From Planctomycetota bacterium (GTDB lineage: Bacteria > Planctomycetota > B15-G4 > SIAN01), in NCBI GenBank assembly GCA_016795285.1, contig JAEUIC010000023.1, forward strand, positions 1 through 64,000: 64,000 nucleotides of DNA, read 5' to 3'. Below, piece by piece: positions 12,003-58,265 of this stretch (position 1 is its first letter; every line of letters begins with the position of its first letter). Below the pieces are notes generated by a model that made no database searches, had not been told where the DNA came from, and worked only from the letters and a program-made list of their open reading frames with translations. Position numbers and translations under genes: made by a program.

Positions 12003-12166
12003 CGGCGCACCCCTTCGTGACTCTCCGTCTCGAGCAGGCGCACACTACCGCGAGGTCGTGCGACGGGTTCGCATGCCGTTCGCGCCGCGCAACGGAGCCT
12101 CCCGCCGACAGTGCCGCCGTAGACTGCCGCGCCGGTCGCGATCCCGCGCGATCGCGGAGTCTCTTG

Positions 12167-19600: not shown

Positions 19601-20261
19601 CTTCGGAGAGCGGGTCGGTGACCACCACGTAGGCGTTGTTCGGCAGGTAGGAGACGACGAAGGCGCCCGTCGCGCGCAGCTCATCGAGCCACGCGTCCTT
19701 CACCGGGCCGTCGAACTGGACGATCCGCAGCCGCCGCTCGCCGTCGGCCGGCGGCTCGACCGGACCGCGCAGATCCTCGCGGATCGACGCGAGGCGCGAG
19801 CGCGTGCCGAGGCGATCGGCGCCGTCCAGCACGAAGCCGTTCACCGGGATCAGCGTCTGCTCGTCGGCGAGCTCTGCGCCCGCGTCGAGCCACTGCGCCA
19901 GCGTCCGGTCGAGCGAGGTGTCGACCAGCGCGTAGGCGAAGGAGCCGTACTCCTCCAGCCGCTCGACCGCGATGCTCTCGGCCAGATGCGCCCGCGCGGC
20001 CGACTCGGTCGGCACCAGCAGGCGGTGGAAGTGGCCCGGCGCCACGTACCCCTCGGGCAGCGCGCCGGCGACGGTCGACTGCGTCGCGCCGTCCTCGGAA
20101 TCGACCCCGACCGCCGCCTCCTGCGCGGGACTCAGCGCTTGGAGCGGCCGCGGCAGCGGCGGCGGCTTCGAACCCAGCAACGGCGCGGCCCCGAGGGCCA
20201 GCAGCGCTGGAATGACCAGCATTCGCGGATCGCGACGCATCTCTTCCTCCCGAGTAGGCAA
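16656..20261 (-). CDS. Secreted subtilisin-like serine protease (S8 family) with two C-terminal proprotein-convertase P-domains
   Basis: Catalytic motifs VDDGVD, GHGNINAS and GTSHSTPAIAGA, followed by two tandem P-domain repeats (ITHTYKGDLEVSLI.PDGTTV..HNRTGG.TDNL ... DLAATDTG.L..WT). Visibly lower GC than neighbouring genes. Confidence 0.85.
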   Translation of the reverse strand: MPTREEEMRRDPRMLVIPALLALGAAPLLGSKPPPLPRPLQALSPAQEAAVGVDSEDGATQSTVAGALPEGYVAPGHFHRLLVPTESAARAHLAESIAVERLEEYGSFAYALVDTSLDRTLAQWLDAGAELADEQTLIPVNGFVLDGADRLGTRSRLASIREDLRGPVEPPADGERRLRIVQFDGPVKDAWLDELRATGAFVVSYLPNNAYVVVTDPLSEGALGKLRVNDWLLSISTYEPAFKLRPELRPPFLLENALQRIIVQVIADAEGQEFVDRLVAREQSLCEPWRVLDYINVELYTSGAMALALARDTHVFAVEPKLDAMLFDEAQGQIMAGNLNAAGTQPTGPGYLSWLQGLGFPGAGANPFSFAVDVVDDGVDKGSLTDVNVEYRVDGVSTGASRFVYSNNYSGDALGDSQAGHGNINASIIGGFNNLAGTAYEDASGYNYGLGIAPWVKIGNSKVFSNAGAGVFNQSTPTRMANAWNGGARISSNSWGYTSGTTYNSDSQAHDAAVRDAVSGTAGNQAMAIVFAAGNDGSGASTIHPPGTAKNVFTVGASENYRMTGTDGCAIGNTGADNAKDIISFSSRGPTSDSRKKPDIMAPGTHIEGAASRAVGYNGSGVCNQYWPTGQTLYAWSSGTSHSTPAIAGASALLRQWFLNNGLPAPSPAMQKAWLTSTTAYMTGVGANDTLPSNNQGYGRVDLGRTFDTTGRITVDETQVLGATGATYTATGNISTSTQPVRVTLAWTDAPGPTTGNAYVNNLDLEVTVNGTLYRGNVFTGGGSITGGTADVRNNVESVFLPAGTTGAISVTVRATNIAGDGVPGNADTTDQDFALVVYNATAGAPTPDFSLSATPASQTITQGQSTSYTATSTPSNGFGGSVTLSASPVISGVSYSFSPNPIAANGSSTLTVTTTATATVGTHTVTITGTSGSLVHSTTVQLVINSAGGGGNPVKTFTVAPNVAIPDNNTTGVTSTINVPNSLTVSSIALTTDITHTYKGDLEVSLIGPDGTTVIVHNRTGGSTDNLKTTFAIVTTPAAALSAFNGKNTAGNWSVKVRDLAATDTGTLGSWTITFNGEASVSPNLSIPDNNTTGVSSPITYSQTGTVASVKVRVDITHTYKGDLEVSLIAPDGTTVLLHNRTGGATDNLQTEYPDLTAPAGSLSAFTGKSIAGNWTLKVRDLAATDTGKLNKWTLSLTAQ
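16680..17410. repeat. Tandem direct repeat of about 366 bp (two units, about 85% identical) inside the S8 protease gene, encoding the duplicated P-domain
   Basis: Sequence 16715-16925 closely matches 17081-17300. The shared segment GTCGCGGACCTTCA..CCAGTTGCC ... ATCAGCGACACCTCGAG.TCGCCCTTGTAGGTGTGGGTGATGTC occurs in both. Confidence 0.8.
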
Positions 20262-20520
20262 CCATTCCGGGTCGCAGTCCGTGACGGACGCGACCGATCC
20301 GCCGCCGTCTTCCCGGGCGGCAGCGAACGACGAAGCGGACGCTAGCCGCCGCCGTCACGCGAAGGAACGAGCCGCTGCACGCGCGAAGGTTCCATCGCGG
20401 ACGAGTCGCGCGACCCTTTTCGCGGTGGCGGCGCGCGACGAGCGTGCGGATCGTCGCGCCGCCGGATTCACCGTCTACTCCTCGGTGGCCCAGCGCCCCG
20501 CTCGATGCGAAGTTGCCGGC

Positions 20521-27744: not shown

Positions 27745-30075
27745 TCAGTACGGGTTGGCTGGCGCGAGTTCCCATGCGTCGACGCGGCGCACCGCGGCCG
27801 CGCCGCCCCGCGTGCGCAGGAAGAGGCCGGCGCTGTCGGCGCGGGTCGGATAGACGCGCCGCGTGATCGCTTGGCGGTCGTTGGCGAAGAGCTCGACGAC
27901 GGAACGATCGACGAAGAGGCGCAGCTGCAGCGGCTCGCCGGGCGCCAGCGCGAACGGAGCGCGCTCGATCGCGCGCCGCCCGTCGCCGCCGCTGCGCGTC
28001 GAATCGAAGACCAGCTCGCCGGCGCGGGCGTCGTAGTAGAGCAGCGTCTCCTCGGCGCCGTCGGGTGACGCGCGCACGACCAGCGCGACGCGATCGGCCT
28101 CCTCGGCGGCGATCTCGACGGCGAGCTCGCACGAGGTGCCGTCCACCCCCTCGATCCGCTGGTCCACGCCGTCGCGCAGCGCGACCGCGGTCTGCGTGCG
28201 CCGCTCGCCGCGCAGCTGCTCGAGCTCCTCCACCGGCGCCTGGCGAAGCGTCCCGTCCTCGCCGAGCCAGAGCGTGCGCGGCAGGCCGTAGACGCCCGAC
28301 CAGCCGCGCGCGCGCTCCCCCTGCGGATTGTCGAGCAGCCACGCCCAGAGGAGCTGTCGGCCGCGACCGTCGATCAGCGCTTCGGGGGCGAAGAAGGTGT
28401 TGTCGACCCAGGTCATGCGCCCGTGCTGCTCGGGGTGGAAACGCTGGTCGCGGTAGGTGCCGACGTAGTACTGGCAGCCCTTGTTGTGCGAGATGAACGC
28501 GAGCAGGTGCTTGCCGCTCGGCGGCCCTCCCGCGCGGCTGCTCGGCAGCGGGAGGAACGACGGGCACATGTTGTCTTCGCTGCGGTCGGTCCACTCGGCG
28601 CGCCGCTCGTAGAAGACGTGGCGGTAGCTCCAATTCACGAGGTCGGGCGAGGTCCAGAGGTAGAGGCGATCGCCCTGGGTCTCCGGCGGCGCATCGACGG
28701 CGCGCCCGATCCGATCGAGCACCAGCAGGTTGCCGGTCAGCACGTGGTAGAGGCCGTCCTGCTTCCAGAGGTTCGACGGGTCCGCCGAGCCGAGCAGCAG
28801 CGGCCGCCCCTCCAGGTCGCGCGTCTCGGTGACGCCGAACGCCGTCGAGCGGATCACCGGATTCGCGGCGCTCTTCTGCCAGCGATCGAGGTCGCGGCTC
28901 GACGCCAGGCCGATCCCCTTCGCGCCCCAGAGCATCCAGTAGCTGAGATGCACCGTGCCGTCGTCGTCGACGAAGGCGCCGCCGCTGAAGCAGCCGTCGT
29001 CGCCGTCGCCCGGTCCGATCGCGTCGGGATGGTGGCGCCAGTGGACGAGGTCGGCGCTCGAGACGTGGCCCCACCAGAAGCCCGCGCCGCGCCGCTCGTA
29101 GAGGTACATCAGGTGGTAGCGGCCGTCGCGATGGAAGGCGCCGTTCGGGTCGCCCGGGATGCCGAGGTCTTCGGGCAGGCAGAAGTGCCAGCGCGGTCGA
29201 TGCGGGTCGGCGAGGAGGCGCTCGCGGAGGAGGCGCGTCGAGCGCAGCACGGCGTCGGGGACTGGCCCCGTCTCCGACCAGCTGCGTGGCACGGCGACCG
29301 CGCTGCGCGCCTCGTCGCCGCGCGCGCGCTGGATCACCGTCGCGCCGGCGCCGCCGAGCACGAGGCAACCGTCGGCGACCCGCGCGTCGCCCACCAGCTC
29401 GATCGTGCGGAAGCGGCCGCTCTTCTCGCGGAGCCCCTCGCCGGCGAAGTCCCACCACGCCCACGGCGCGCGCTCGCCATCGGGCGTCCCCGCGCGCAGC
29501 GCAGCGATCGCCGTCCCGGAGAGCGCCTCGGCGTAGATGCGCGCCTCGCGGATGCGACCGGTGAACGAGTGCTGCGGATCGCCCGCATCGAGGTGGCGCC
29601 GGCCGAAGAGCACGGCGCACTGCGGGCCGTAGCTCGGCGGCGCCTCGGCCGCTTCGTGCCGCGCGTAGAGCACGCCGTCGCGCCAGAGCTCGACCTCGCG
29701 ACCGCGCTGCACGAGCGCCAACTGGAGGAAGGTCGTGGGGCTCGCCGTCTCCTCCGCGTAGCTCGCCTGCTCGCGCTGCGTCCGGCGGAACCCCTCGCTC
29801 CCCGCCATCCAGCGGCGCGGCTCGATCTCGCCGAAGACGATCGCGTCGAAGCGGCCCGCCTCGTCGTCGATGGTGAACGCGCTGCCGGCGCGTTGCGCGA
29901 GGTCCGCCGGCGCGCACCAGACGACCAGCGTCCGATCGGCGAGCTGCTGCGGCGCCGCGCGCGCGAGCGCGAGGGCGGACGCCAGCACCACGACGAGGAG
30001 AGCGCGCGCGGCGCGGCGAAGGGTGTACGAGTGGAGTTGGTGCATGGGCGCGATGGTACGCGGCGCGCCGCGCAC
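27745..30075 (-). CDS. Glycoside hydrolase family 32 protein (beta-fructofuranosidase/levanase-like) with an N-terminal accessory domain
   Basis: WHFCLPEDLGIPGDPNGAFHRDGRYHLMY (the WMNDPNG-type nucleophile motif), an FSGGA region and the acid/base ECP-like motif NMCPSF. Signal-like N-terminus. 776 aa. Confidence 0.65.
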   Translation of the reverse strand: MRGAPRTIAPMHQLHSYTLRRAARALLVVVLASALALARAAPQQLADRTLVVWCAPADLAQRAGSAFTIDDEAGRFDAIVFGEIEPRRWMAGSEGFRRTQREQASYAEETASPTTFLQLALVQRGREVELWRDGVLYARHEAAEAPPSYGPQCAVLFGRRHLDAGDPQHSFTGRIREARIYAEALSGTAIAALRAGTPDGERAPWAWWDFAGEGLREKSGRFRTIELVGDARVADGCLVLGGAGATVIQRARGDEARSAVAVPRSWSETGPVPDAVLRSTRLLRERLLADPHRPRWHFCLPEDLGIPGDPNGAFHRDGRYHLMYLYERRGAGFWWGHVSSADLVHWRHHPDAIGPGDGDDGCFSGGAFVDDDGTVHLSYWMLWGAKGIGLASSRDLDRWQKSAANPVIRSTAFGVTETRDLEGRPLLLGSADPSNLWKQDGLYHVLTGNLLVLDRIGRAVDAPPETQGDRLYLWTSPDLVNWSYRHVFYERRAEWTDRSEDNMCPSFLPLPSSRAGGPPSGKHLLAFISHNKGCQYYVGTYRDQRFHPEQHGRMTWVDNTFFAPEALIDGRGRQLLWAWLLDNPQGERARGWSGVYGLPRTLWLGEDGTLRQAPVEELEQLRGERRTQTAVALRDGVDQRIEGVDGTSCELAVEIAAEEADRVALVVRASPDGAEETLLYYDARAGELVFDSTRSGGDGRRAIERAPFALAPGEPLQLRLFVDRSVVELFANDRQAITRRVYPTRADSAGLFLRTRGGAAAVRRVDAWELAPANPY

Positions 30076-30115
30076 GGCCGGTCCGCGGAACGCGTGGATC
30101 AGCGGAGCGCGTGGG

Positions 30116-30787
30116 TCAGCTGACCGCGCCGCCCGTCTCCTGCCGATCGCCGCGCGCCACCGAGAGCGCCGTCTCGATCGTCCGCACCACCGCCCGCTCC
30201 ATCAGGTCGAGCGGCAGGCCGGGAGCGCCGGGGTGGCGCGCCGCCTGCTCGTCGCTGTACGGCACGTGGACGAAGCCGGCGCGCACGTCATCGCGCCGCG
30301 AGAGCGCGTGCAGCAGCGCATAGAAGACGTGGTTGCAGACGAAGGTGCCGGCCGTCTGCGAGACGGCGGCCGGGATCGAATCGGCGCGCAGCGCATGGAC
30401 GATCGCCTTGATCGGCAGCGTCGCGAAGTAGGCGGCGGGGCCGTCGGCGACGATCGGCAGGTCGATCGGCTGCGCGCCGTAGTTGTCGGGGATGCGCGCG
30501 TCGTCGACGTTGATGGCGACCCGCTCGAGGCTGATCTCGGCGCGGCCGCCCGCCTGCCCGAGCGCCACCACCAGCTGCGGCGCCGCATCGGCCAGCGCCG
30601 CATGCAGCGCCTCGCGCGCCGCCCCGAAGCGGCACGGCAGCACGCGGCCGACCACGCGGTGGCCCGCGACGACGCGGCCGTCGAGCCGCTGCGCCAGCTC
30701 CTGCGACGGGTTGGTCGCCTCGCCGCCGAACGGCTCGAAGCCGGTCACCAGCACCGTGCCTGCTCGCTGCGTTCTGCGCGTCGCCAT
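30116..30787 (-). CDS. pcp: Pyroglutamyl-peptidase I (pyrrolidone-carboxylate peptidase)
   Basis: [17 protein letters not shown] near the N-terminus; catalytic Cys in [11 protein letters not shown]. Start chosen at MATRR (30787). Confidence 0.8.
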
Positions 30788-43297: not shown

Positions 43298-44155
43298 TCA
43301 GCGCTTCTTCGCGAAGGGGTCGACGCTCGGATCGCGGTGCCACTGGTACTCGGTCCAGGCGGCCACCTGCTCGGCGCGCGCCTTGCCGTAGAGGCGCTCG
43401 ATGACGTGCAGCGCCATGTCCATGCCCGCCGAGACGCCCGACGAGGTGACGAACTCGCCGTCGTCGACCCAGCGCGCCTCGTAGACCCACTCGACCGCGC
43501 CGCTCTGCTTCACCGCGAGGTCGAACCAAAGCTTGTTCGAGGTCGCCTTGCGACCGTCGAGCAGCCCCGCCTTGGCCAGCAACGCCGAGCCGCTGCAGAC
43601 CGACGTGGTCAGCTCGGCGCGCTCCGACCGCTCGCGCAGGAAGGCGAGGAACGCCTCGTTCTCGAGCTCCTTCAGCGTCCCCATCCCGCCCGGCACCATC
43701 AGCAGGTCGAGCTCGGGACAGTCGGCAAACGAGTGGTCGGCGACCAGCGCGACGCCCTGGATCGAGTTCACGCGGCCGCTGCGCTGCGACACCGTGACGA
43801 GCCGCAGCTCGGCGACGTTGCCCCACATCTCGAGCGGGCCGCACGCGTCGAGCAGCTCGAAGCCGGGATAGAGCACGACACCTACCGTCTTCTGCTTGGC
43901 CGCCTGTGCCGCCTGCAGCGCGATCACCGCCGAACGGCTCTGCAGCGCCATGCCGCACTGCGGGCAGTTCCCGGCCGCGGCGTGGTCGACCAGGTCGCAC
44001 GGCTTCCCGCGCATCACGCACCACCACGGCTCCGCTTCCTGCGCCGCGCGCGCGCCTTCCTGGGCGACGGCGCGGCGGGCGTCCGCCACCACGAGGAGGA
44101 ACGCGGCGGCCACCGCGCAGCAGAACAGTGCCACGAGTCGACGAGGCGCATTCAT
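43298..44155 (-). CDS. DJ-1/PfpI-family protein with signal peptide and N-terminal Cys4 motif
   Basis: Catalytic-Cys elbow TTSVCSGSALLAKAGLL; upstream CDLVDHAAAGNCPQCGM; signal peptide MNAPRRLVALFCCAVAAAFLLVVA. Real start at 44155 inside the giant artefactual ORF 43298-46240. Confidence 0.7.
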   Translation of the reverse strand: MNAPRRLVALFCCAVAAAFLLVVADARRAVAQEGARAAQEAEPWWCVMRGKPCDLVDHAAAGNCPQCGMALQSRSAVIALQAAQAAKQKTVGVVLYPGFELLDACGPLEMWGNVAELRLVTVSQRSGRVNSIQGVALVADHSFADCPELDLLMVPGGMGTLKELENEAFLAFLRERSERAELTTSVCSGSALLAKAGLLDGRKATSNKLWFDLAVKQSGAVEWVYEARWVDDGEFVTSSGVSAGMDMALHVIERLYGKARAEQVAAWTEYQWHRDPSVDPFAKKR

Positions 44156-44184
44156 GGTGAGTTCACCGATGGCTTCGGGGAGCG

Positions 44185-46963
<2,779 letters not shown>

Positions 46964-46973: not shown

Positions 46974-48071
46974 TCACAAGCTCATCGGCATCACGACGTA
47001 GGCGAAGCCCGCGGCCGGCCGGAAGACGCACGCCGCCGTCGAGTCGCGGAAGCTGAACGGCAGCTTCTCGGGCAGCTGCTTCTTGCCGAAGTCGAGCAGG
47101 AAGGCGGGGTTGAAGGAGATCTTCACCTCCGGCCCGATGTAGTCGACCGGCATCTCGCTGCGCGCATCGCCGCGCCCTTCGTGCTTGCCCGCCAGCACGA
47201 GGCTGCCCTCGCTGAAGGTCAGCGTGATGGCCGGCGCGTCATCGCCCGCCATGACGTTCACCTGGCGCACGCAGCCGAAGAAGTTGTCGCGATCGAGCTG
47301 CACCGTCGTGCCGACGTCGTCGGCCGGCACCACGCCGCGGTAGTCAGGGAACTCGGCGTCGCGCGAGGTCGCCGAGAGGACCGTGTTGCCGCAACGCAGC
47401 AGCGCGCGCCGCTTGCTCAAGTGGAGGCCGACGACCTCCGCGTTCGGACCGAGCGCGCGCAGGAAGTGGGTCACCCCCTTCAGCGGCACGATCTCCTTCA
47501 CCGGATGGGCGACCGGCTGCTCGAGCGTCGCTTCGGCCAGCGCGAGACGTCGCCCGTCGGTGCTCACCATGCGGATCGTCTTGCCGTCGAGCTCGAGCAG
47601 GATGCCGTCGATGGCGTAGCGGCCGAGCTCGCGGCTGGCGGCGAACTCGGTGCGCTCGGCGAGCTCGCGGAAGAGCGGCGCCGGGAGGTCGACGAAGTTC
47701 GGGGCATCACCGACCGCGACCTCGGGGAAGTCGGCCGGGTTCTCGCCGCTGACGCGGAACTGCCCGCGCGCCGAGCGCAGCAGGGCGACGTTCCCGTCGG
47801 TCGAGAGGTCGATCGTCTCGCCCGGCGCCTCGCGCAGGATCCCGGCCAGCATCCCGGCGGGCAGCGCGAGCGTCCCCTGCTCCTCGATCAGCAGCGGCGT
47901 GTAGCGGCAGCGCAGCGACACCTCGAGGTCGGTCGCCAGCAGCTCGAGCTCCGGCCCGTGCGTCTTGAAGAGGATGTGCTGCAGGATCGGCCGCGTACCG
48001 CGGCTGGCCGTCACTCCGCCGACGACTCCAACGATCTCCTGCAGCTCCTTGCGATCGCAGCGCAGCTTCAT
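46974..48071 (-). CDS. dnaN: DNA polymerase III beta sliding clamp
   Basis: MKLRCDRKELQEIVGVV...RPILQHILFKTHGPELELLATDLEVSL; 365 aa, three-domain length. Confidence 0.95.
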   Translation of the reverse strand: MKLRCDRKELQEIVGVVGGVTASRGTRPILQHILFKTHGPELELLATDLEVSLRCRYTPLLIEEQGTLALPAGMLAGILREAPGETIDLSTDGNVALLRSARGQFRVSGENPADFPEVAVGDAPNFVDLPAPLFRELAERTEFAASRELGRYAIDGILLELDGKTIRMVSTDGRRLALAEATLEQPVAHPVKEIVPLKGVTHFLRALGPNAEVVGLHLSKRRALLRCGNTVLSATSRDAEFPDYRGVVPADDVGTTVQLDRDNFFGCVRQVNVMAGDDAPAITLTFSEGSLVLAGKHEGRGDARSEMPVDYIGPEVKISFNPAFLLDFGKKQLPEKLPFSFRDSTAACVFRPAAGFAYVVMPMSL

Positions 48072-48528
48072 GCCTCTCCCTCACCGTTCCGCAGAGCCCG
48101 ACCGGGCTGCACTGGATGCTCGAGGCGCGGGATTCTAGGGAAGAAGAACTCGATTCGTTCGTGTCCGTGTCGATGGGGTCGCACGAATCGGGACAAGTCG
48201 CGAGCCACCTTCGGTAAGTCGAGTCAGGGCTTCGAGTTCGGAGCTTCGGCGAGAGGTCGGCCGGCGGGGAGAGACCGTGGACTCCAATCCCGATCTCCAC
48301 GCGCGGTCGGTGGAGTCGTGCCGCCGCGCGCCGAGGCTCTGGATCGTCCGCGAACTTGCCGCGGTCTTGTGCGGCGTTTGCCCGACGGATCTCCACCGAT
48401 CCTGATGGGCGCCACGGGCGAAACGGCGCACTCCGCCGGACGCCGACCGGAAGCGCCGCGGGCGGCCCCTCCCGGAGGAGAGACCGCCCGCGTGCCGATT
48501 CGTCGTGGGGTCAGGCGCGTGCTGCGGC
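48072..48528. promoter_or_regulatory. Candidate oriC / dnaN promoter region (dnaA-dnaN intergenic spacer)
   Basis: 457 bp of non-coding sequence with locally reduced GC (GGGATTCTAGGGAAGAAGAACTCGATTCGTTCGTG). DnaA-box-like 9-mers with 2 mismatches to TTATCCACA occur at 48291-48300 (GATCTCCAC) and 48388-48397 (GATCTCCAC), with inverted partial copies at about 48278 (GTGGACTCC) and about 48311 (TGGAGTCGTG). Confidence 0.4.
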
Positions 48529-49977
48529 TCAACGCTCGAGCAGCGTCCGCAGCCGCGAAAGGTGGTCGCGGATGCGGCTGTCGCTGGTGGCCACCTCGTC
48601 GATCTTGCGGATGCCGTGCAGGATCGTCGTGTGGTCGCGGCCGCCGAGCTGCGCGCCGATCTCCGACAGCGACAGCTCGGTCCGCTCGCGCAGCAGGTAC
48701 ATCGCCGCCTGCCGCGCGAAGGAGAGCGCCTGCGGGCGGCGCGGCGAGCAGAGGTCGGCGACGGTCACCTCGAAGTGCTGGCAGATCGCCTTCAAGATGC
48801 GATCGGGCGACGAGGAGGGCCGCTGCAGCAGCGTGTCGTCGTGCAGCGCCGCGCGCGCCGACTTCAGCGTGACCGGCGCGCCGATCAGCTTGGCGCCGGC
48901 GATCACGCTGGTGAGCGCTCCCTCGAGCTCGCGCACGTTGTTGGTCGGCAGCTCGGCGAGGAAGTCGGCCACGTCGGCCGGCAGCGTCTCGCCGCGCAGC
49001 TTCGCCTTGGCGACGACCAGCGCGTGGCGCGTCTCGCGATCGGGAGCGCGCAGCCCGACGCGGTAGGCGCCGGCCAAGCGCGCCTGCAGCGCCGGGTCGA
49101 GGTTCAGCGTCTCGCCAGGCGCGCAGCTCGCCGCGAAGAGGAGCCGCGTCCCGCGATCGCCCCACGCGTTCAGCGTGTGGACGAGCTCGGCCTGCGTGCC
49201 GGTCTTGCCGGCGAGCAGCTGCAGGTCGTCGAAGCAGACGAAGTCGAGGCCGCGCCAGCGATCGCGGAAGCGGCTGGCCGCCTCGGCGCCCTGCGCGCAG
49301 GCGGTCACGAACTCGTTCACGAAGTTCTCGCCGCGCACGTAGGCGACCTGGCGCCCCGGCTCCGACCGAGCCGCCGCCGCTCGCGCGGCCGCCTGCAGGA
49401 GGTGGGTCTTGCCCGTGCCGGTCGCGCCGACGATGAAGAGGGTCGCGAAGTCGACCTGCGGGGAGGTGGCGAGCGACTGCGCCGCCGCCGCCGCTAGCTG
49501 GTTGCTCGGGCCGAGGACGAAGCGCGCGAGGTCGTACCCCTCGGTCAGCGGAAGGTCGCCGCAAGTCCTGACGGAGCCAGGCTTTGCGCTCTTCGCCGCC
49601 GGCGCCGCAGCGGCCGCCGGGAGGGCATTCGCGCCCCCGGAGGTGCGGCCGGTGTCCGCCTTGCCCGCCTTCGCCGGAGCGGTGGCCGGCGCCGTGGTCC
49701 GCCCGTTGGCGGCCTCGGCCCCGTCACGCCCGCCGACCTCCAGATGGAGCTCGCGGGCGCCGCCCAGCACGGTCGCGACCGACTCCTCGACCACGTCGCG
49801 GTAGTAGGTCACGATCCAATCACGGTGGAACTTGCTCGGCACTCGAAGGACTACGCGCTGCTCGTCGAGCTCCGCCAACTGCAAGTTGCGGAACCACGTC
49901 GCGAACTGTTGCGCCGTGGTCTTCTGCTCAATCTTCTCGAGAACAGCCTGCCAAAGAGTGACCGCTTTCGCGGGCAG
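48529..49977 (-). CDS. dnaA: Chromosomal replication initiator DnaA
   Basis: N-terminal LWQAVLEKIE...FATWFRNL, AAA+ Walker A LFIVGATGTGKTHLL, and domain IV ILKAICQHFEVTVADLCSPRRPQALSFARQAAMYLLRE. Start uncertain; MLPAK at 49977 is chosen, and MVGEG at 50004 or M at 50103 are also possible. Confidence 0.9.
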   Translation of the reverse strand: MPAKAVTLWQAVLEKIEQKTTAQQFATWFRNLQLAELDEQRVVLRVPSKFHRDWIVTYYRDVVEESVATVLGGARELHLEVGGRDGAEAANGRTTAPATAPAKAGKADTGRTSGGANALPAAAAAPAAKSAKPGSVRTCGDLPLTEGYDLARFVLGPSNQLAAAAAQSLATSPQVDFATLFIVGATGTGKTHLLQAAARAAAARSEPGRQVAYVRGENFVNEFVTACAQGAEAASRFRDRWRGLDFVCFDDLQLLAGKTGTQAELVHTLNAWGDRGTRLLFAASCAPGETLNLDPALQARLAGAYRVGLRAPDRETRHALVVAKAKLRGETLPADVADFLAELPTNNVRELEGALTSVIAGAKLIGAPVTLKSARAALHDDTLLQRPSSSPDRILKAICQHFEVTVADLCSPRRPQALSFARQAAMYLLRERTELSLSEIGAQLGGRDHTTILHGIRKIDEVATSDSRIRDHLSRLRTLLER

Positions 49978-50337
49978 CATCGGACGGATCCCCTCCCCCA
50001 CCATGGGTCGCCCAACCCAGGCATGCAGGTTCGGAATAGGTTGCGGCCTCGCAGGGGTCGGCGCGCAGCGCACCGGCCTGGGCCCACATGTCGTGCACGG
50101 CATCTGCTGCGGTCGCCCCCGCCTCAGAGCCGTTCTTCGTGAAGGATGTCTCCGCAGCCGGTTGGACGTCCGGTCGCGGCGTGCTGCTCTTCACTGAGAA
50201 GGCACAAGTTCTAGGGGCCGGGATTGAAGGTCGTCAACGACCTCTCCTCGTCGGACCGTTTGCGTCCCGTTCCGTGAGGACGACGCAAGTCGTTGCGCGC
50301 GACGGCTCGACGCGGATGTTGCGACTCGAAAAAAATC

Positions 50338-51495
50338 TCAGCGCGAGCGCAGCGAGACGACCGCTGCGTGGAGTCGTCGCGCCAGCTCTTCGACGTTCGC
50401 GCGCGTCGTCGTGCGTCCCATCGAGAAGCGAAGGGAGCGCGTGGAATGGTCCGCAGCGCCGATTGCCGACAAAACCGGCGAGGGGAGCGCCGCGCGCGTC
50501 GAGCAGGCGGAGCCGTGGCTCGCCGCGACCTCGAGCGCGTCGAGCGCGGCCACCAGCCAGTCGCCGCGCAGCTCCGCGAAAGAGCAGTTGACGAGGCCCG
50601 GCACGCCGTACTCCGTGCTCGAGTGCAGGGTTACGTCGGGCAGCAGCTCGCGCAGTCGCGCCACCAGCAGCGCGGAGAGCTCGCGCAGCGATGCCGCCAG
50701 CGCGTGCAGCTCGGCGCGCGCGGACTGCCACGCGACCGCCGCGGCGACGATCGTCGCGACGTCTTCGGTGCCGCCGCGCACGCCCTGTTCTTGGCGACCG
50801 GGCGAGAGCGGCGTGCCGAGCTCGACGCCGGCGCGACGCGCCAGCACGCCGATGCCGCGCGGCCCGCCGAACTTGTGCGGCGAGAGGACGAGCAGGTCGA
50901 CGCCCAACTCCGGCAGCGCGAGGTCGAGCTTGCCGGCCGCCTGCGTCGCGTCGCAGTGGAAGAGCGCGCCGTGCCCGTGCGCGAGCACGGCCAGCTCCGC
51001 CACCGGTTGCACCGTCCCGATCTCGTGGTTCACGAGCTGCACGCTGACGAGTCCGGTCGTCGGCCGCAGGCGACGCGCGAGCTCCTCCGCCGCGACCCGC
51101 CCGAAGCGGTCGACCGGCAGCGTCTCGAGCTCGATCGCCCCATTGCGGGCGGCGCGCTCGAGCGGCTCGAGGACGCTCGGATGCTCGATGGCGCTGGCGA
51201 GGACATGGCGGCGGTCGCGTGGTAGATCTGAAACCGAGCCGTCGAGGGCGACCAGGTTCGCCTCGCTGCCGTTCCCCAGGAAGAAGAGGTCGTCGCGAGC
51301 GACCCCGAGGGAGTCGGAGAAGGTGCGGCGAGCGCGCTGGAGCGCGGCGCGGGCGTGGCGACCGAAGGCGTGGGCGCTCGAGGCGTTGCCGTAGTCGTCG
51401 CAAAGCGCCTCGAGCAGCGCCGCCTTCGCCTCGGGGCGCAGCGGCGCCGTCGCGGCCCAGTCGAAGTAGAGGCGCTCGCGCGCCGGCCCGCTCAC
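50338..51495 (-). CDS. Cysteine desulfurase-family class-V aminotransferase
   Basis: PLP-lysine motif LLVLSPHKFGGPRGIGVL; persulfide Cys loop SHGSACS. GTG start at 51495 overlaps the bshA stop (GTGA); 385 aa. Confidence 0.75.
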   Translation of the reverse strand: MSGPARERLYFDWAATAPLRPEAKAALLEALCDDYGNASSAHAFGRHARAALQRARRTFSDSLGVARDDLFFLGNGSEANLVALDGSVSDLPRDRRHVLASAIEHPSVLEPLERAARNGAIELETLPVDRFGRVAAEELARRLRPTTGLVSVQLVNHEIGTVQPVAELAVLAHGHGALFHCDATQAAGKLDLALPELGVDLLVLSPHKFGGPRGIGVLARRAGVELGTPLSPGRQEQGVRGGTEDVATIVAAAVAWQSARAELHALAASLRELSALLVARLRELLPDVTLHSSTEYGVPGLVNCSFAELRGDWLVAALDALEVAASHGSACSTRAALPSPVLSAIGAADHSTRSLRFSMGRTTTRANVEELARRLHAAVVSLRSR

Positions 51496-52661
51496 CCGAC
51501 CGCCCCGCGCCCCCGTCGCGCCAGCGCAGCGTGGTAGATGCGCTCGTGGACGGTCAGCACCTGCGCCAAGTCGAACTGCTCGACCGCCCGCTTGCGACCG
51601 CGCGCGCCGAAGTCGCGGCGCAGCGTCGCGTCGGCCAGCAGCGTCTTCAACCGCGCGGCCAGCGCCGGCACGTCGCCGAAGCGGACCAGGAAGCCGGTGG
51701 AGTTGTCCTCGACGACCTCGCGCATGCCGCCCGAGTCGTAGCCGACCACCGGCACGCCGCACGCATGCGCCTCGAGCGCCGCGAGGCCGAAGCTCTCGCT
51801 CTCGCTCGAGACGACCAGCACGTCGGCGAAGGGCAGCAGGTCGTGCACGTCGTCGACGATGCCGAGGAACTGCACGCGCTCCTCGAGCTTCAGCTCCGCC
51901 ACCAGCGCCTCGGCGCCGGCCCGCTCCGGCCCGTCGCCCACCAGCACGAGCTGCGCCTTCGTCCCCGCCGTCGCGTCGGCGAAGGCGCGCACCGTGTCGC
52001 CGAGCCGCTTCACCGGCCGGAAGTTCGAGACGTGCATCACGATCGGCGAGTCGGCGCACGCGCAGAGCAGCGGCGACGTGCGCCCCTCCTTCGGGCGGAA
52101 GCGCGTGACGTCGACGAAGTTCGGGACGACCTGGATCTCCTTGGTCGCGCCGAAGATCCGCTGCGTCTCCTTCTTCAGCCACTCGGAGACGGCGATCACC
52201 TCGTCGCTCTGCTCGATGCCGAAGCGCGTGACGTCGCGGTAGGCGTTGCCGCTGCCGACCAGCGTGATGTCGGTGCCGTGCAGCGTGGTGACGATGCCGA
52301 AGCGGACGCCCGGCATCAGCTGGCGCGCGAGGTAGGCGCTGATCGAGTGCGGGATCGCGTAGTGGACGTGGAGCAGGTCGAGGCGCCGTTCGCCGATCAC
52401 CTCGATCATCTTCGAGGCCAACGCGAGGTCGTAGGGCGGGTACTTGAAGAGCGGGTACTCCGACACCTCGACCAGGTGGCAGAAGATGCGCGGGTGGTAG
52501 CGCGACAGGCGCGGCGGCTTGCTGTAGGCGAGGAAGTGGACCTCGTGGCCACGCTCCGCCAGCGCGACGCCGAGCTCGGTCGCCAGCACGCCGCTGCCGC
52601 CGTGCGTCGGATAGCAGGCGATGCCGATCTTGAGCGGGAAGTCGGTGGAGCCGGCGTTCAT
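51492..52661 (-). CDS. bshA: N-acetyl-alpha-D-glucosaminyl L-malate synthase (GT4 glycosyltransferase)
   Basis: N-terminus LKIGIACYPTHGGSGVLATELGVALAERGHEVHFL closely matches the BshA signature; the C-terminal GT4 EX7E region is present. Confidence 0.75.
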   Translation of the reverse strand: MNAGSTDFPLKIGIACYPTHGGSGVLATELGVALAERGHEVHFLAYSKPPRLSRYHPRIFCHLVEVSEYPLFKYPPYDLALASKMIEVIGERRLDLLHVHYAIPHSISAYLARQLMPGVRFGIVTTLHGTDITLVGSGNAYRDVTRFGIEQSDEVIAVSEWLKKETQRIFGATKEIQVVPNFVDVTRFRPKEGRTSPLLCACADSPIVMHVSNFRPVKRLGDTVRAFADATAGTKAQLVLVGDGPERAGAEALVAELKLEERVQFLGIVDDVHDLLPFADVLVVSSESESFGLAALEAHACGVPVVGYDSGGMREVVEDNSTGFLVRFGDVPALAARLKTLLADATLRRDFGARGRKRAVEQFDLAQVLTVHERIYHAALARRGRGAVG

Positions 52662-52698
52662 GGCGTCCCTTCGTGGAGCGAGCGGCGCGGCGCGGCGC

Positions 52699-53448
52699 TC
52701 ACGGCAGCAAGCTCATCGGATCGGCGATCTTCGGCGGTCCTTGCGTGAAGAACGGCTCGGCGTAGTCGACGCCGACCTGCGCGCCGAAGAAGCGATCGCG
52801 CGCGGCGCGCCGCTCGAGGAAGTCGGGGCGCGACAGCGCGGTCTGCGGCTCGGCGCGCGCCGGATCGTGGAGCTGCGACTGGTGGCAGCGGATCGCGGCG
52901 AGCTTCTTCTCGAAGACCGACGACACGTCGACCACGCAGGTCGGTGCGTGCTGCTCGTGCTCGAAGTACTGCAGGAGGAGGTCGGGGCGATGGCGTTCGG
53001 TGGCGCGCGCGGCGCCCCCCGCCACCGGCTGCCACTTCTTCAGCCCGGCGAGGTAGCGCGCCTGCTTCACCGTCTCGCCGACGATGACGTGGTCGGGGTG
53101 GGCGTCGCTCGGGTAGTTGGCCAGCACGAGGCGCGGCCGGTGCTCGCGGATCAGCTCGACGACTCTTGCGACCGCGAGTTCTCGCACGGCGAGGCCGCTC
53201 GCCGGATCGCGGAACGGCAGGAAGCCGTCGGGCAGCTCGAGGTTGAGGCGCGCCTTCGCGCCCAGCACCCGCGCCGCCGCGTCGGCCTCGGCGCGCCGCT
53301 CGGCCACGCTGCCGCGCGTCCCCATCTCGCCGCGCGTGAAGTCGACCAGCACCACCTCGCGCCCTTGCGCCGCCAGCAGCGCGAGCGTGCCGCCGCAGCC
53401 GATCTCGAGATCGTCGGGGTGGGCACCGAAGGCGAGCACGTCGGCCAT
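52699..53448 (-). CDS. bshB1: LmbE-like deacetylase, likely N-acetyl-glucosaminyl-malate deacetylase BshB1
   Basis: AHPDDLEIGCGGTLA and HPDH motifs of the LmbE/PIG-L family. It lies between bshC and bshA. Start MADVLAFGAHPDD at 53448. Confidence 0.7.
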   Translation of the reverse strand: MADVLAFGAHPDDLEIGCGGTLALLAAQGREVVLVDFTRGEMGTRGSVAERRAEADAAARVLGAKARLNLELPDGFLPFRDPASGLAVRELAVARVVELIREHRPRLVLANYPSDAHPDHVIVGETVKQARYLAGLKKWQPVAGGAARATERHRPDLLLQYFEHEQHAPTCVVDVSSVFEKKLAAIRCHQSQLHDPARAEPQTALSRPDFLERRAARDRFFGAQVGVDYAEPFFTQGPPKIADPMSLLP

Positions 53449-53492
53449 GGAAGGGAGGCTCCGCGGACGAAGGGAGGCGCGGTCAGCGTGGG

Positions 53493-54884
53493 CTAGAGCA
53501 CTGGATGGGGCACGACGCCGTGCTGGTCGGGTTCCCCGCGCAGCTCGAGCAGCGCTTCGATCAGCGCCGGCCCGCGCTGCGCCAGGAAGGGCAGCCCGTT
53601 CAGCGAGCGGTCCTGCGGCTTGCCGCGCGGGCGCAACGTCGCGGCGAGCGTCTTCCAGCGCGCCGTCTCGCTCTGCTCGCCGTCGGCGACCGCGCTGGCG
53701 GCTCGCTCGAGCAGCCCGTCGAAGCTCTGCAGCAGCTGGGTCGCGCGCCGGTCCGCGGCGCTCTTCACGGCGGGACTGAGCGCAAGGAGTTGCTCGACGT
53801 AGCCGGCGACTTCGTGGCGCAGCGCCGCGCCGCGTTCGAGGAGCGGCGAGCGGGCGGGTGGCCCTGCTTCGCGAGCGGCCAGCGCGGCCAGCAGTCGGTC
53901 GGGCGCGAGGCCGAGCTTCCGGGCGGCGCGCGCGGCGGCGGTGGTGAGCAGGGTGGCGTGCGGCCGGCGGACGAGCTGCGGGAAGGGGACGCCGAAGAGG
54001 CGGTGGAGCGGCTCGAGCTGGCGGTAGTAGAGGAGCTCGGTCGGCCCGGCGACGTAGGCGAGTGCTGGGAGACAGCCCGCCTGCACGATCGTCCGCAGCG
54101 CGACGTTGGCGGAGAGGCGCGGCAGCCCGGGCCCCGCGAGATCGAGCAGCGCCGCGCGGCTGATGGTGCGCTCGCCGACGAGGAACTCGCCCGGGCGCGC
54201 GCCGCGACGGACTCGGGTGCGCGCCCCCCTCTCGATCACGAAGAGCGGCGGCTCGTCCTCGACCGGGAGCGGGGCGGCGAGGCCGGCGGCGGCATTGGCG
54301 GCGGCTCCCTCGGCGAGCGCGCGGCCGATCGCGCCGTCGTCGCGGAGCGCCTGATCGAAGAGCGGGCGAGCGGCGGCGGTCAGCTCGCGCGGCTCGATCA
54401 CCGCGGGCGCGTGGGCGCCGAAGAGCTGCCGGAAACAGCGGATGAACCAGCTCGCGAGGGTGTCGCCCGGCTGCGGGAGCCACGGCTCGAGCGGGAAGGC
54501 GGCCGGGTCGATGGCGGCCAGCGTGAAGAGCTCCGCGACGAGCGCTCGGCCCGCTTCGATCGGGACGACAACTTCACTGGCAGCGCCGCGATCCGGCCCG
54601 AGCTCGAGGCGCAACCTCTGGACTTCGTCCTGTCCGTTCACGACGAAGGTGTGGTGGATCTCGTCGAGGTCGTGGTCGTCGGAAGCGGCCCAGAAGAGCG
54701 GCACCACGGGCGCCCCGCGCTCCGCCGTCTGCTCCCGCGCGAAGGAGATCGCCCGCGCCGCCTTGAGCAGGGTGAGCAGCGGGCCCGTGAGGACGCCGAC
54801 CTGCTGTCCCGTGACGACGCAGGCGGCACCGACCGGCAGGCCGGGCAATGAAACGGGACAGCGAGGGGTGGGTGGGGCGACCAT
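53493..54884 (-). CDS. bshC: Bacillithiol biosynthesis cysteine-adding enzyme BshC
   Basis: N-terminal VVTGQQVGVLTGPLLTLLKA (the GQQ motif characteristic of BshC); length about 460 aa; operon with bshB1 and bshA. Confidence 0.65.
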   Translation of the reverse strand: MVAPPTPRCPVSLPGLPVGAACVVTGQQVGVLTGPLLTLLKAARAISFAREQTAERGAPVVPLFWAASDDHDLDEIHHTFVVNGQDEVQRLRLELGPDRGAASEVVVPIEAGRALVAELFTLAAIDPAAFPLEPWLPQPGDTLASWFIRCFRQLFGAHAPAVIEPRELTAAARPLFDQALRDDGAIGRALAEGAAANAAAGLAAPLPVEDEPPLFVIERGARTRVRRGARPGEFLVGERTISRAALLDLAGPGLPRLSANVALRTIVQAGCLPALAYVAGPTELLYYRQLEPLHRLFGVPFPQLVRRPHATLLTTAAARAARKLGLAPDRLLAALAAREAGPPARSPLLERGAALRHEVAGYVEQLLALSPAVKSAADRRATQLLQSFDGLLERAASAVADGEQSETARWKTLAATLRPRGKPQDRSLNGLPFLAQRGPALIEALLELRGEPDQHGVVPHPVL

Positions 54885-55069
54885 CGGGGCGGTGGGTTCG
54901 GGGCTCGGGGATGCCGCGCGAGGCGGGGAGGTTACCCGGGCGGGTGGCGAGGCAGCTGTTCCGCGCGACGAAGCGGCCGGCGCGTCGTACGTTGTCGCGC
55001 CTCGTTCGTGCCGCGCGGGCTCCCCGGCGCTTGGCGGCGTGGACGCGTCCCACCGTGAGGAGCGATTCG

Positions 55070-57253
55070 ATGACTGCCAGCGCCCGGCTCACCCTGTTCG
55101 TGCTCTTCCTCGGGTCGATGACCACGACCGGGCGCGCCCTCGCGCAGGGTCGCGCCCCCAGCGACCGCCGCCCCTTCGACCTCGCCGATGTCTACGGCGT
55201 CGCGCAGGTGCAGGCGCCGGCGCTGTCGCCCGATCGGTCGCGGGTCGCCTTCGCGGTGAAGCGCTACGACGTCGACGCGGGCAGCTCGTGGAGCGAGCTC
55301 TGGTTGGTCGGCGTCGATGGCGCCGGCCTGCGGCAACTCACCTTCGCCAAGAAGGGGGACCGCGACCCGCTCTTCGCGCGCGACGGGCGCTCGCTCTTCT
55401 TCGTCTCGAATCGCAGTGGCAGCGACCAGGTGTGGGCGCTCGCGCTCGACGGCGGCGAGGCGCGGCAGCTCACCGACTGGCCGCTCGGCGTCGATGGAGC
55501 GCGGCTCTCGCCTGACGGCCGCTACCTCGCCGTCACCAGCGAGGTGTGGCCCGATCTGCCGTGCGATGGCGCGCTGCAACAGGCGCGCGATGAGGAGCGG
55601 GCGAAGGGGAAGCTCGACGTCCTGCTGACCGACTCGCTGTTGTATCGCCACTGGACGAGCTGGGAGGACGGCAAGGCGACTCACGTGCTGCTGGTCGATG
55701 CGGCGAGTGGCGCGGTCGTGGGCGACCTCACGCCCGGCCCGTTCGACAGCCCGCCCTTCATGCTGGGCGGCGGGCGCGGCTACGACTTCGCGCCCGACGG
55801 CCGCCACTTCGTCTTCATGTCGAACCACGATCTGGTGCAGGCGACCTCGACCAACGCCGACCTCTTCTGGATCGCACTCGATCGCCCCGAGGCGGCGACC
55901 AACCTCACCGAAGCGTGCGATGGCTGGGACGGCGCGCCGCTCTTCTCGCCCGACGGGACGAAGCTCGCCTACTTGAGCCAGGAGACGCCGGGCTACGAGT
56001 CGGACCTGAAGCGGCTCGCGGTGCTGGACGTCGCGACGCGCAGGACGAGCTACCTCACGGCGCGCGACGGCTTCGACGACATGGTCGGCGAGATGCGCTT
56101 CACGCGCGACGGCGCGACCCTCTTCTTCCAGGCCGAGCAGAAGGGCCGCACGCCGCTCTTCGCGCTGCCGGTGGCGGGCGGCACGCCGAAGAAGGTGCAC
56201 GAGCACGCGTCGATCGACGCGTGGGAGCTCCTGGCCGACGACGGCTCGTTCCTCTACGCGCGGCGCGGCTTCACCGAGCCGCACGAGCTCTGCGTCAAGC
56301 GCGCGGGCGACGCCGCGCCGACCCGCCTCACCGCGTTCAACGCGAAGTACGAGGCGGAGATCGATCTTCGGCCGGCGCAGGAGCTCTGGATCGACGCCGA
56401 GGACGGCAACAAGATCCACACCTTCGTGATCACGCCGCACGGCTTCGATCCGGCGAAGAAATACCCGCTGATCTTGAACGTCCACGGCGGCCCGCAGTCG
56501 CAGTGGCAGGATTCGTTCCGTGGCGATTGGCAGGTCTATCCAGCGAAGGGCTACGTGCTGGCGTTCGCCAATCCGACCGGGTCGACGGGCTACGGCCAGA
56601 AGTTCTGCGACGGGATCGGCGGCGATTGGGGCGGCCGCGTCTACCGCGATCTGATGAAGGTGACCGACGCGCTGGCGGCGCTGCCGTATGTCGACTCGCA
56701 GCGCATGGGCGCGATGGGCTGGTCGTACGGCGGCTACATGATGATGTGGATGCAAGGCCACACCGACCGCTTCCAGTGCCAGGTCGCGATGATGGGCCTC
56801 TACGACTTGAGGAGCTTCTACGGCGCCACCGAGGAGCTCTGGTTCCCGAAGCACGACTTGCGCGGCGAGCCGTGGAGCAGCGACCACTTCGAGCAGTGGT
56901 CGCCGTCGAACCACGTCGCGCAGTTCAAGACGCCCGCGCTGGTGATCACCGGCGAGCTCGACTTCCGCGTCCCCTACACGCAGAGCCTGCAGTACTTCAC
57001 CGCGTTGCAGGAGCGGGGCGTGCCGTCGCGCTTGGTCGTCTTCCCGAACGCCGGCCACTGGCCCGGCTGGCAGGAGATGCTGTTCTATTACGGAGCGCAC
57101 GTCGACTGGTTCGCGCGCCACCTCGGCGGCGAGCCGCTCGACCGCGACCTGAACGATTGGGCGCGGATGCGGAAGATGCCGGCGAAGCCGGCGAAGCCGG
57201 CGATGCGCGCGGGCGCGGCCGGCGCGGCCGGCGGCAGCGCGAGCGGGAGCTGA
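55070..57253 (+). CDS. S9-family serine peptidase (prolyl oligopeptidase/acylaminoacyl-peptidase-like), secreted
   Basis: Signal peptide MTASARLTLFVLFLGSMTTTGRALAQG, a beta-propeller region, and GWSYGGYM (GxSxGG) with downstream Asp and His in an alpha/beta-hydrolase domain. Confidence 0.8.
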   Translation: MTASARLTLFVLFLGSMTTTGRALAQGRAPSDRRPFDLADVYGVAQVQAPALSPDRSRVAFAVKRYDVDAGSSWSELWLVGVDGAGLRQLTFAKKGDRDPLFARDGRSLFFVSNRSGSDQVWALALDGGEARQLTDWPLGVDGARLSPDGRYLAVTSEVWPDLPCDGALQQARDEERAKGKLDVLLTDSLLYRHWTSWEDGKATHVLLVDAASGAVVGDLTPGPFDSPPFMLGGGRGYDFAPDGRHFVFMSNHDLVQATSTNADLFWIALDRPEAATNLTEACDGWDGAPLFSPDGTKLAYLSQETPGYESDLKRLAVLDVATRRTSYLTARDGFDDMVGEMRFTRDGATLFFQAEQKGRTPLFALPVAGGTPKKVHEHASIDAWELLADDGSFLYARRGFTEPHELCVKRAGDAAPTRLTAFNAKYEAEIDLRPAQELWIDAEDGNKIHTFVITPHGFDPAKKYPLILNVHGGPQSQWQDSFRGDWQVYPAKGYVLAFANPTGSTGYGQKFCDGIGGDWGGRVYRDLMKVTDALAALPYVDSQRMGAMGWSYGGYMMMWMQGHTDRFQCQVAMMGLYDLRSFYGATEELWFPKHDLRGEPWSSDHFEQWSPSNHVAQFKTPALVITGELDFRVPYTQSLQYFTALQERGVPSRLVVFPNAGHWPGWQEMLFYYGAHVDWFARHLGGEPLDRDLNDWARMRKMPAKPAKPAMRAGAAGAAGGSASGS

Positions 57254-57317: not shown

Positions 57318-58265
57318 TCACCGCCCCGCCACCGCCGCGCGGATCGCGTCGCTCGCGCTGATCGCTGCCGCGCGGGCGAGCTCGGCGAAGCGGGCGGCGC
57401 CGCCGCTCTTCTCCTGTTCTTTCCAGGCGAAGAGGACGCCGCGCGACGAGTTGACGACGGCGCCGCCGCCGCGGGCATCGAAGCAGCAGGCGACGTCGGC
57501 GGCCGTGCCGCCCTGCGCGCCGTAGCCGGGCACCAGGAAGAAGGTCTTCGGCAGCTCGCGGCGCAGGAGCGCGCCCTCGTCGGGGTGGGTCGCGCCGACG
57601 ACCGCGCCGACATCGCTGTAGCCGCTCGTGCCGACGTTGGTGGCGCCCCACTGCTCGAGCAGCGCGCCGACGCGGCGGTAGAGCGCGCCGCCGCTGTTGG
57701 CGACGCCCGGCCCCGCGGCGCCGACGTCCTGGATCTCCTTGCCGGAGGGATTCGAGGTGCGTGCCAGCACGAAGACGCCGCGGCCCTTGGCGCGGCCGAC
57801 CTTGAGGAACGGCTCGATGCCATCGACGCCGAGGTAGGGATTGAGCGTGACCGCGTCGACCGCCGAGCCGTCGTCGGGGCCGAGGTGGCCCTTCGCGTAG
57901 GCGGCCGCGGTCGAGCCGATGTCGGCGCGCTTGATGTCGCCGATCACGAAGAAGCCGCGGCGGTGCGCCTCGCGGACGATCTCGAAGTAGAGCGCGTAGC
58001 CGTCGGGGCCGAGCGCCTCGAAGAAGGCGATCTGCGGCTTCAAGCACGGGACGACGCCCTCGAGCGCGCCGATCACGTCGAAGAGGAAGTCGCGCACGTG
58101 GAGCAGGACGCCGCGCCCTTTCGGGTCGGGCGGCAGCTGCTCGTAGTGGGGATCGAGGCCGACGCAGATCGCCGAGCGGCTCTTCTGGCAGAGTTCGGCG
58201 AGACGATCGAAGCAGTGGCTGGTCGGCACGCGCGCGCTCCATCCGTTGGCTGTCCGCCGCCTCAT
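57318..58265 (-). CDS. pyrF: Orotidine 5'-phosphate decarboxylase, type 2
   Basis: ICVGLDP, KPQIAFFE and DIKRADIGSTA motifs. Start MRRRTANG at 58265; a nearer GTG start is possible. Confidence 0.75.
   Translation of the reverse strand: MRRRTANGWSARVPTSHCFDRLAELCQKSRSAICVGLDPHYEQLPPDPKGRGVLLHVRDFLFDVIGALEGVVPCLKPQIAFFEALGPDGYALYFEIVREAHRRGFFVIGDIKRADIGSTAAAYAKGHLGPDDGSAVDAVTLNPYLGVDGIEPFLKVGRAKGRGVFVLARTSNPSGKEIQDVGAAGPGVANSGGALYRRVGALLEQWGATNVGTSGYSDVGAVVGATHPDEGALLRRELPKTFFLVPGYGAQGGTAADVACCFDARGGGAVVNSSRGVLFAWKEQEKSGGAARFAELARAAAISASDAIRAAVAGR

Follow-up and report, generated by a model that had tools for sequence, protein, structure and literature searches.

The closest described counterparts of the locus reported here are the bacillithiol (BSH) biosynthesis genes of Bacillus subtilis and Staphylococcus aureus. 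Their pathway uses the same three enzyme families, BshA, BshB1 and BshC, and provides the closest solved relatives of the three proteins encoded by our locus, which lies at positions 50338-54884 of a 64-kb stretch of DNA (the window) taken from a 207-kb contig of a Planctomycetota metagenome-assembled genome (MAG). In B. subtilis, bshA and bshB1 are found in an operon with mgsA, and bshC is located elsewhere with panE (PMC5790435). In contrast, the window appears to hold one bshC-bshB1-bshA operon that also includes a cysteine desulfurase gene and lies beside dnaA in a diderm planctomycete, and its BshC begins ~85 residues later than the Bacillus protein. According to a 2018 review by Chandrangsu et al., the BshC reaction has never been reconstituted in vitro, and a cofactor, substrate or protein may be missing from the assays; the active site of BshC is solvent-exposed and could admit another protein (PMC5790435). 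No later literature that resolves this reaction was found. Bacillithiol is also linked to iron-sulfur (Fe-S) metabolism in B. subtilis (PMC4554457).

Several diderm phyla are already part of this picture. Hiras et al. (2018) predicted BSH or N-methyl-BSH (N-Me-BSH) in Chlorobi, Bacteroidetes, Acidobacteria, Chlamydiae, Gemmatimonadetes and Proteobacteria, and for Chlorobiaceae and Polaribacter they also measured N-Me-BSH; Planctomycetes were among the major lineages without a documented or predicted low-molecular-weight thiol (PMC6282198). Engelhardtia mirabilis and Saltatorellus ferox, both Planctomycetota, appear with BshA, BshB, BshC and NmbA in the supplement of a 2025 RefSeq survey (PMC12719100), and no discussion of planctomycete bacillithiol was found in the full-text literature beyond this supplementary table. 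The two species belong to the same phylum as the window and have the same predicted pathway at the gene level, but they are cultured RefSeq species, whereas the lineage of the window has MAG relatives only, and an nmbA gene was not found in the 64 kb. A preliminary description of this DNA, made from the sequence alone, proposed that the locus would extend the range of bacillithiol. This proposal is largely out of date, because diderm bsh genes have been known since 2018, two planctomycetes were listed in 2025, and the GenBank names already cover the locus.

Other diderm bsh clusters (L007-L010, L016, L037, L040, L067 and L086 in our comparison) have their bsh genes clustered as in the window. 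Unlike the window, the clusters of Acidobacteriota, Ignavibacteriales and Polyangia have no flanking class-V desulfurase, none of them lies beside dnaA, and their BshC is full length (~537-545 aa).

Bacillithiol genes of the window

The gene calls were taken from the identical public contig, and the G+C content of the window is ~72%. Four consecutive, co-linear genes lie on the minus strand in the order bshC-bshB1-bshA-cysteine desulfurase. They fill exactly the interval that had been marked out in the preliminary description, from the stop codon of the desulfurase to the start codon of bshC. GenBank already names the four proteins cysteine desulfurase, BshA, BshB1 and BshC (MBL8842217-MBL8842220), and all four are exact matches:

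53493-54884, minus strand: bshC, 463 aa, ATG start (MBL8842220)
52699-53448, minus strand: bshB1, GlcNAc-malate deacetylase of the LmbE/PIG-L family, 249 aa, ATG start (MBL8842219)
51492-52661, minus strand: bshA, N-acetyl-alpha-D-glucosaminyl L-malate synthase of the GT4 family, 389 aa, ATG start (MBL8842218)
50338-51495, minus strand: cysteine desulfurase with class-V fold, type I (NifS/IscS-like) and dependent on pyridoxal 5'-phosphate (PLP), 385 aa, GTG start (MBL8842217)

Family membership was judged by the NCBIfam equivalog cut-offs and the Pfam gathering scores. BshA scored 482.1 bits on TIGR03999 (cut-off 273.7) and matched profile positions 1-373 of 375, while the next-best NCBIfam family reached 140 bits and the MshA family 84 bits. 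When compared with solved structures, BshA gave 356-367 bits with the B. anthracis and B. subtilis BshA proteins (3MBO, 2JJM, 5D00) and 45 bits with MshA (3C48). BshB1 scored 256.9 bits on TIGR04001 (cut-off 182.5), compared with 61 bits for BshB2, 42 bits for MshB and 41.5 bits for Mca. Its top relatives in PDB were 2IXD (B. cereus BC1534), 6P2T, which is named N-acetyl-alpha-D-glucosaminyl L-malate deacetylase 1, and 1UAN (Thermus TT1542). The zinc-site motifs AHxDD/HxDH are present in BshB1, and the segments FGAHPDDLEIG and DAHPDHV align with 2IXD. No BshB2 was found among the open reading frames (ORFs) of the 64-kb window scanned with Pfam and NCBIfam.

GT4 and LmbE are large families of diverse function, and 42 GT4 family matches were listed. 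The two genes might then serve mycothiol, polysaccharide or another glycoside pathway, with a superficial match to bacillithiol enzymes. We regard this as scarcely credible, given the distance between the bacillithiol models and the next families for both proteins. Moreover, the neighbouring bshC belongs to a family that is known only from bacillithiol synthesis, and other phyla carry the same bshC-bshB-bshA cluster. A mycothiol or other GT4/LmbE pathway was ruled out by the model scores and the PDB relatives, and the grouping of these genes elsewhere, which the preliminary description had named as the outcome that would overturn its reading, did not occur. Judged by these sequence comparisons, the three genes are of the bacillithiol type and not of the mycothiol type.

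BshC matched both of its Pfam domains above the gathering score of 27, with 166.2 bits for the Rossmann-like BshC domain (PF10079) and 33.9 bits for the C-terminal coiled-coil domain (PF24850). It contains the GQQ motif (VVTGQQVGVLTGP), so that the motifs named beforehand, GQQ in BshC and AHPDD and HPDH in BshB1, are all present. In an alignment of 48 diverse BshC proteins, 25 columns are invariant, and the BshC of the window has the expected residue in each of them, for example G26, Q27 and Q28 of the GQQ motif, D70, H71 and D72 of the DHD motif, and R264.

The arrangement is conserved in relatives. Five species-level Planctomycetota genomes (L001-L005; the taxonomy of all the genomes follows the labels of the submitters), in which BshC is 56-80% identical, share the gene order bshC-bshB1-bshA-desulfurase-dnaA-dnaN-gyrB. 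The full block pyrF-bshC-bshB-bshA-desulfurase-dnaA-dnaN-dciA-gyrB is kept in L001-L005, L015, L019 and L021; in the window, L001 and L005, a peptidase gene sits between pyrF and bshC. L019, L021 and L022 are much remoter MAGs with a pyrF-led block, which in L022 contains an inserted trpC; in L019, BshC is 33%, DnaA 39% and GyrB 57% identical. Across all four genes dN/dS, the ratio of nonsynonymous to synonymous substitution rates, was 0.06-0.37 (0.06-0.17 for bshA), and these values are upper estimates because dS is probably underestimated at such G+C. BshA is 97% identical to its L001 orthologue.

The bshA and desulfurase genes overlap by 4 nt, where the start codon of the desulfurase (GTG) and the stop codon of bshA (TGA) run together as GTGA, and the bshA/desulfurase overlap is also 4 nt in L021. 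Translational coupling, which had been suggested for the whole cluster, strictly applies only to this pair; bshC and bshB1 are 44 nt apart, and bshB1 and bshA are 37 nt apart.

The locus is thus probably a four-gene operon through which an uncultured member of the Planctomycetota encodes all three steps of the bacillithiol pathway. The four genes would be co-transcribed. BshA would produce GlcNAc-malate from UDP-GlcNAc and L-malate, BshB1, as a zinc deacetylase, would convert GlcNAc-malate to GlcN-malate, and BshC would combine GlcN-malate with cysteine, so that bacillithiol would actually be made. The desulfurase would most likely convert L-cysteine to alanine and keep the sulfur as a persulfide on the enzyme, to supply Fe-S clusters or thio-cofactors. 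When co-expressed with the thiol pathway, it would draw on a common cysteine pool and take part in a common thiol, sulfur and Fe-S homeostasis. Such co-expression fits the connection to Fe-S metabolism that is established for bacillithiol in B. subtilis (PMC4554457), as well as the shared demand for cysteine. The operon would have been inherited vertically within an old block beside the replication genes. In the sub-lineage of the window, a peptidase gene would have been inserted upstream of bshC, and BshC would have lost its ~55-85 N-terminal residues and kept its core fold.

Several points weigh against this reading. The operon promoter is only inferred, because a scan of the spacer between bshC and the peptidase gene found no sigma-70 consensus, and a terminator scan of the 333-bp spacer between the desulfurase and dnaA found no canonical terminator or hairpin. 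In L022 (943-6556), an opposite-strand trpC gene, for indole-3-glycerol-phosphate synthase (IGPS), is inserted between bshA and the desulfurase gene, so the co-transcription of these two genes is not universal. Adjacency kept in one lineage could be inherited synteny without functional meaning, and the logic of desulfurase co-expression is our own deduction. Among the ORFs of the 64-kb window scanned with Pfam and NCBIfam, none encodes bacilliredoxin, Bdr/YpdA, BstA/DinB, FosB or NmbA; because there are no BSH-using genes in the window, the use of the pathway is not corroborated there. No report was found in the literature on the thiols of Planctomycetota. Finally, BshC scored 253.7 bits on TIGR03998 (E 3.9e-75), which is 12 bits short of the cut-off of 265.8, and it is without ~55-85 N-terminal residues of the characterised, canonical BshC of ~540 aa.

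The shortened BshC

The match of BshC to the TIGR03998 profile begins at position 76 (to 521) of 529 because the N-terminus is absent. Consistently, the alignment to the B. subtilis enzyme (4WBD) covers residues 86-467, so the canonical N-terminal segment of ~85 residues is absent. The protein is truly short, because there is no in-frame upstream start and the upstream DNA enters the divergent peptidase gene. A frameshift or a mis-called start was considered as the cause of the short BshC and rejected: there is no upstream in-frame start, the other frames are without BshC-like sequence, and the relatives are short too. The length of BshC is 432-484 aa in the closest relatives, 510-538 aa in remoter members of the lineage and ~540 aa in other phyla. 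The genomes that carry the peptidase gene between pyrF and bshC, namely the window, L001 and L005, belong to the sub-lineage in which BshC is shortest (432-484 aa). In relatives where pyrF is the immediate upstream neighbour of bshC, BshC has 510-538 aa. The 5' end of bshC may have been lost when the peptidase gene was inserted.

The AlphaFold2 model of BshC had a predicted local distance difference test score (pLDDT) of 94.4 and a predicted template-modelling score (pTM) of 0.90. When the model was searched with Foldseek, 4WBD was found first (E 3.4e-30, TM-score 0.72), followed by class-I aminoacyl-tRNA synthetases. On this model, BshC is a putative cysteine-adding enzyme whose core fold is kept despite the N-terminal loss.

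It is conceivable that the truncated bshC is decaying or inactive, so that the pathway ends at GlcN-malate in this sub-lineage. The score below the curated cut-off and the missing ~55-85 residues would agree with decay, and bshC evolves faster than bshA (80% versus 97% identity to the L001 orthologues). However, the reading frame of bshC is intact, and a short BshC of 432-484 aa is kept in many species. The dN/dS of bshC against three relatives was 0.21-0.35 (like the other values, upper estimates), which indicates purifying selection, although looser than that on bshA. The model is confident and has no disordered parts, and neither the first Rossmann strand nor the GQQ motif has been lost. 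Even in full-length BshC, conservation is somewhat lower in the N-terminal region than elsewhere in the protein, with a mean top-residue frequency of 0.45 versus 0.52. Decay of bshC is therefore very unlikely.

Another possibility concerns the end product. BshC shows only 20% identity when structurally aligned with the B. subtilis enzyme and has lost its N-terminus, and such a short, divergent enzyme might alter the last step; alternatively, the product might be a bacillithiol derivative such as N-methyl-bacillithiol, made by an NmbA encoded elsewhere. Both Planctomycetota species in the 2025 survey have NmbA beside BshABC (PMC12719100). In contrast, no NmbA-type methyltransferase is present in the window, BshA and BshB1 agree closely with their equivalog models, and all the invariant BshC residues are present. 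A derivative is possible but clearly less likely than bacillithiol itself, and it would affect only how the product is finally decorated, while the locus itself would be of the same nature. Bacillithiol synthesis by the four-gene operon remains the preferred reading.

The linked cysteine desulfurase and the conserved block

The desulfurase matched PF00266 with 186.5 bits, and gave ~200-219 bits with the solved structures of NFS1 and IscS. Its PLP lysine (SPHKFGG) and its catalytic-cysteine loop (SHGSACS) align with SGHKIYG and SSGSACTS of NFS1, and both the PLP lysine and the catalytic cysteine are kept in all seven linked desulfurase orthologues that were examined. The protein was under every specific equivalog cut-off (bits scored/cut-off): NifS 298.5/530.75, IscS 229-240/548-643, DndA 247/480 and SufS 110/475. 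No scaffold or acceptor gene (IscU, NifU, SufE/U, ThiI, MnmA) lies beside it, as its only neighbours are bshA and dnaA. It resembles the orphan type-I desulfurases (Thermotoga 1ECX, Archaeoglobus IscS2 4EB5 and B. subtilis NifS/NifZ/YrvO), which likewise have ~380-385 aa, a conserved PLP lysine and catalytic-loop cysteine, and no adjoining IscU/NifU gene. Unlike them, the enzyme of the window is under every specific desulfurase cut-off and is embedded in a bacillithiol operon. The fourth gene most likely encodes a generic NifS-like desulfurase that is co-expressed with the bacillithiol pathway. A role in persulfide or Fe-S metabolism, as the preliminary description had suggested, is plausible, and the linkage that it had noticed is real.

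In a neighbour-joining tree of desulfurases, the linked enzymes were not robustly one clade, and no claim is drawn from the tree for this reason.

The linkage was also considered as a general trait of bsh loci, and this was rejected. No class-V enzyme was found in the flanks of 80 metagenome bshC loci of other lineages (0/80; 34 of the 80 had at least 3 kb of downstream sequence), and the linkage is absent from the bsh clusters of Acidobacteriota, Ignavibacteriales and Polyangia. One further candidate, P0074, proved to be an unrelated solitary bshC. The association with the desulfurase is therefore old and confined to one lineage, within a larger conserved block.

The desulfurase could instead be a dedicated partner of the pathway, either a synthase of bacillithiol persulfide (BSSH), which would hand its own persulfide to BSH, or the missing protein or sulfur donor of the BshC step. 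This idea would suit a BshC reaction that has never been reconstituted in vitro and an exposed active site that could take another protein (PMC5790435). In L013 (5426-8203) and L014 (5415-8146), the block has no bshB or bshA and bshC abuts the desulfurase gene, and the desulfurase, which lacks an adjacent scaffold gene, falls into none of the specific equivalogs NifS, IscS and DndA. However, if it were a universal cofactor of BshC, it should accompany bshC in more than one lineage, and none of the 80 outside bshC loci is linked. The chemistry is no obvious fit either, since the BshC step requires cysteine to be activated at its carboxyl group, and a desulfurase instead takes the sulfur away. 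In L022, the desulfurase gene is separated from the bsh genes by the opposite-strand gene, and conservation extends over the whole block, pyrF and dnaA included, as in plain inherited synteny. We consider a dedicated partnership improbable, and a generic, co-expressed desulfurase remains preferred. If the partnership were true, the operon would be a natural minimal system in which to reconstitute the last step of bacillithiol synthesis.

The genes and spacers around the operon are as follows:

57318-58229, minus strand: pyrF, beyond the peptidase gene on the upstream side of the operon
55070-57253, plus strand: S9/Dpp5-like peptidase gene, divergent from bshC (gene call)
54885-55069: divergent spacer of 185 bp between bshC and the peptidase gene, the presumed promoter region of the operon
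50005-50337: spacer of 333 bp from the stop codon of the desulfurase gene to the start of dnaA, with a seven-T run directly after the stop (50328-50337)
48529-50004, minus strand: dnaA (gene call)
46974-48071, minus strand: dnaN (gene call)
46664-46963, minus strand: DciA-like ORF of 99 aa between dnaN and gyrB, overlapping the gyrB start (PF05258 E 6e-4, under the gathering score)
44185-46692, minus strand: gyrB (gene call)

The operon lies directly upstream of dnaA, as had been described, with the 333-bp spacer between them. The seven-T run past the desulfurase stop stands in a genome of 72% G+C, and may be a weak terminator or a part of the dnaA control region. As to the DciA-like ORF, the syntenic genes of L019, L021 and L022 carry PF05258 on record.

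The host and the meaning of the locus

The source is a Planctomycetota MAG with kdsC at 2-769 of the window (TIGR01670, 136.8 bits versus a cut-off of 106.95), which agrees with the diderm-type host and the kdsC gene of the preliminary description. Its OstA-family gene was not confirmed with family models. The two large ORFs after kdsC (770-4165 and 4116-6746, plus strand, ~1131 and 876 aa) had no significant Pfam or NCBIfam match, and the only match, in the first one, was LptD_N with E 0.24. The kdsD-kdsC-large-ORF arrangement recurs in L019-L022, and one orthologue has a weak LptD match. These large ORFs may encode highly divergent lipopolysaccharide-transport proteins. A GyrB search found no cultured relative, and the closer relatives were only MAGs labelled Planctomycetes or Planctomycetota.

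The spacer between dnaA and dnaN (48072-48528) is non-coding and contains blocks that are conserved in four species: CATCAGGATCGGTGGAGATC, GTGGAGAnCGGGATTGGAnTCCAC, GACTTGTCCCGATTC, ACACGGACACGA and GAGTTCTTCTTCCCTAGAATCC. The sequence GTGGAGATC occurs twice in the window, and both copies are in this spacer. The canonical DnaA box TTATCCACA, with up to one mismatch, was found nowhere in the window, and the GC skew at 1-kb resolution did not pinpoint an origin. The conserved blocks could be an oriC with divergent DnaA boxes, or the promoter of dnaN.

Other features of the window were also noted. The GyrB proteins of several close relatives (P0273, P0275-P0277) are 1256-1409 aa long and contain intein and LAGLIDADG domains (PF14890, PF14528), which the GyrB of the window is without. 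Directly downstream of gyrB, at 43298-44185 on the minus strand, is a gene for a DJ-1/PfpI protein (PF01965, 91.6 bits), which has an N-terminal hydrophobic segment and then a cysteine-rich stretch before the catalytic domain. Two sulfatases, a large subtilase with P-domains and a GH32 enzyme are encoded at 8210-9685 (minus strand), 11816-15133 (plus strand), 16656-20354 (minus strand) and 27745-30201 (minus strand); they fit a planctomycete lifestyle and are unrelated to the bsh locus.

The locus is genuine, already annotated and conserved in its lineage. Because the block is conserved across the lineage, the locus fills in the known picture without changing it, and it overturns nothing. Three features are less obvious: the operon is deeply conserved in its place next to dnaA, the desulfurase is specific to the lineage, and BshC is naturally short; no report of a bsh-desulfurase operon was found in the literature searched. 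The four genes form a compact cassette for expression. The coupling to the desulfurase and the short BshC offer modest handles, the first on a link between bacillithiol and sulfur or Fe-S trafficking and the second on the minimal needs of BshC. These results indicate that a complete bsh operon is a conserved feature beside the replication genes in a broad, uncultured lineage of Planctomycetota, and bacillithiol or a derivative of it is predicted to be the redox buffer of this lineage.

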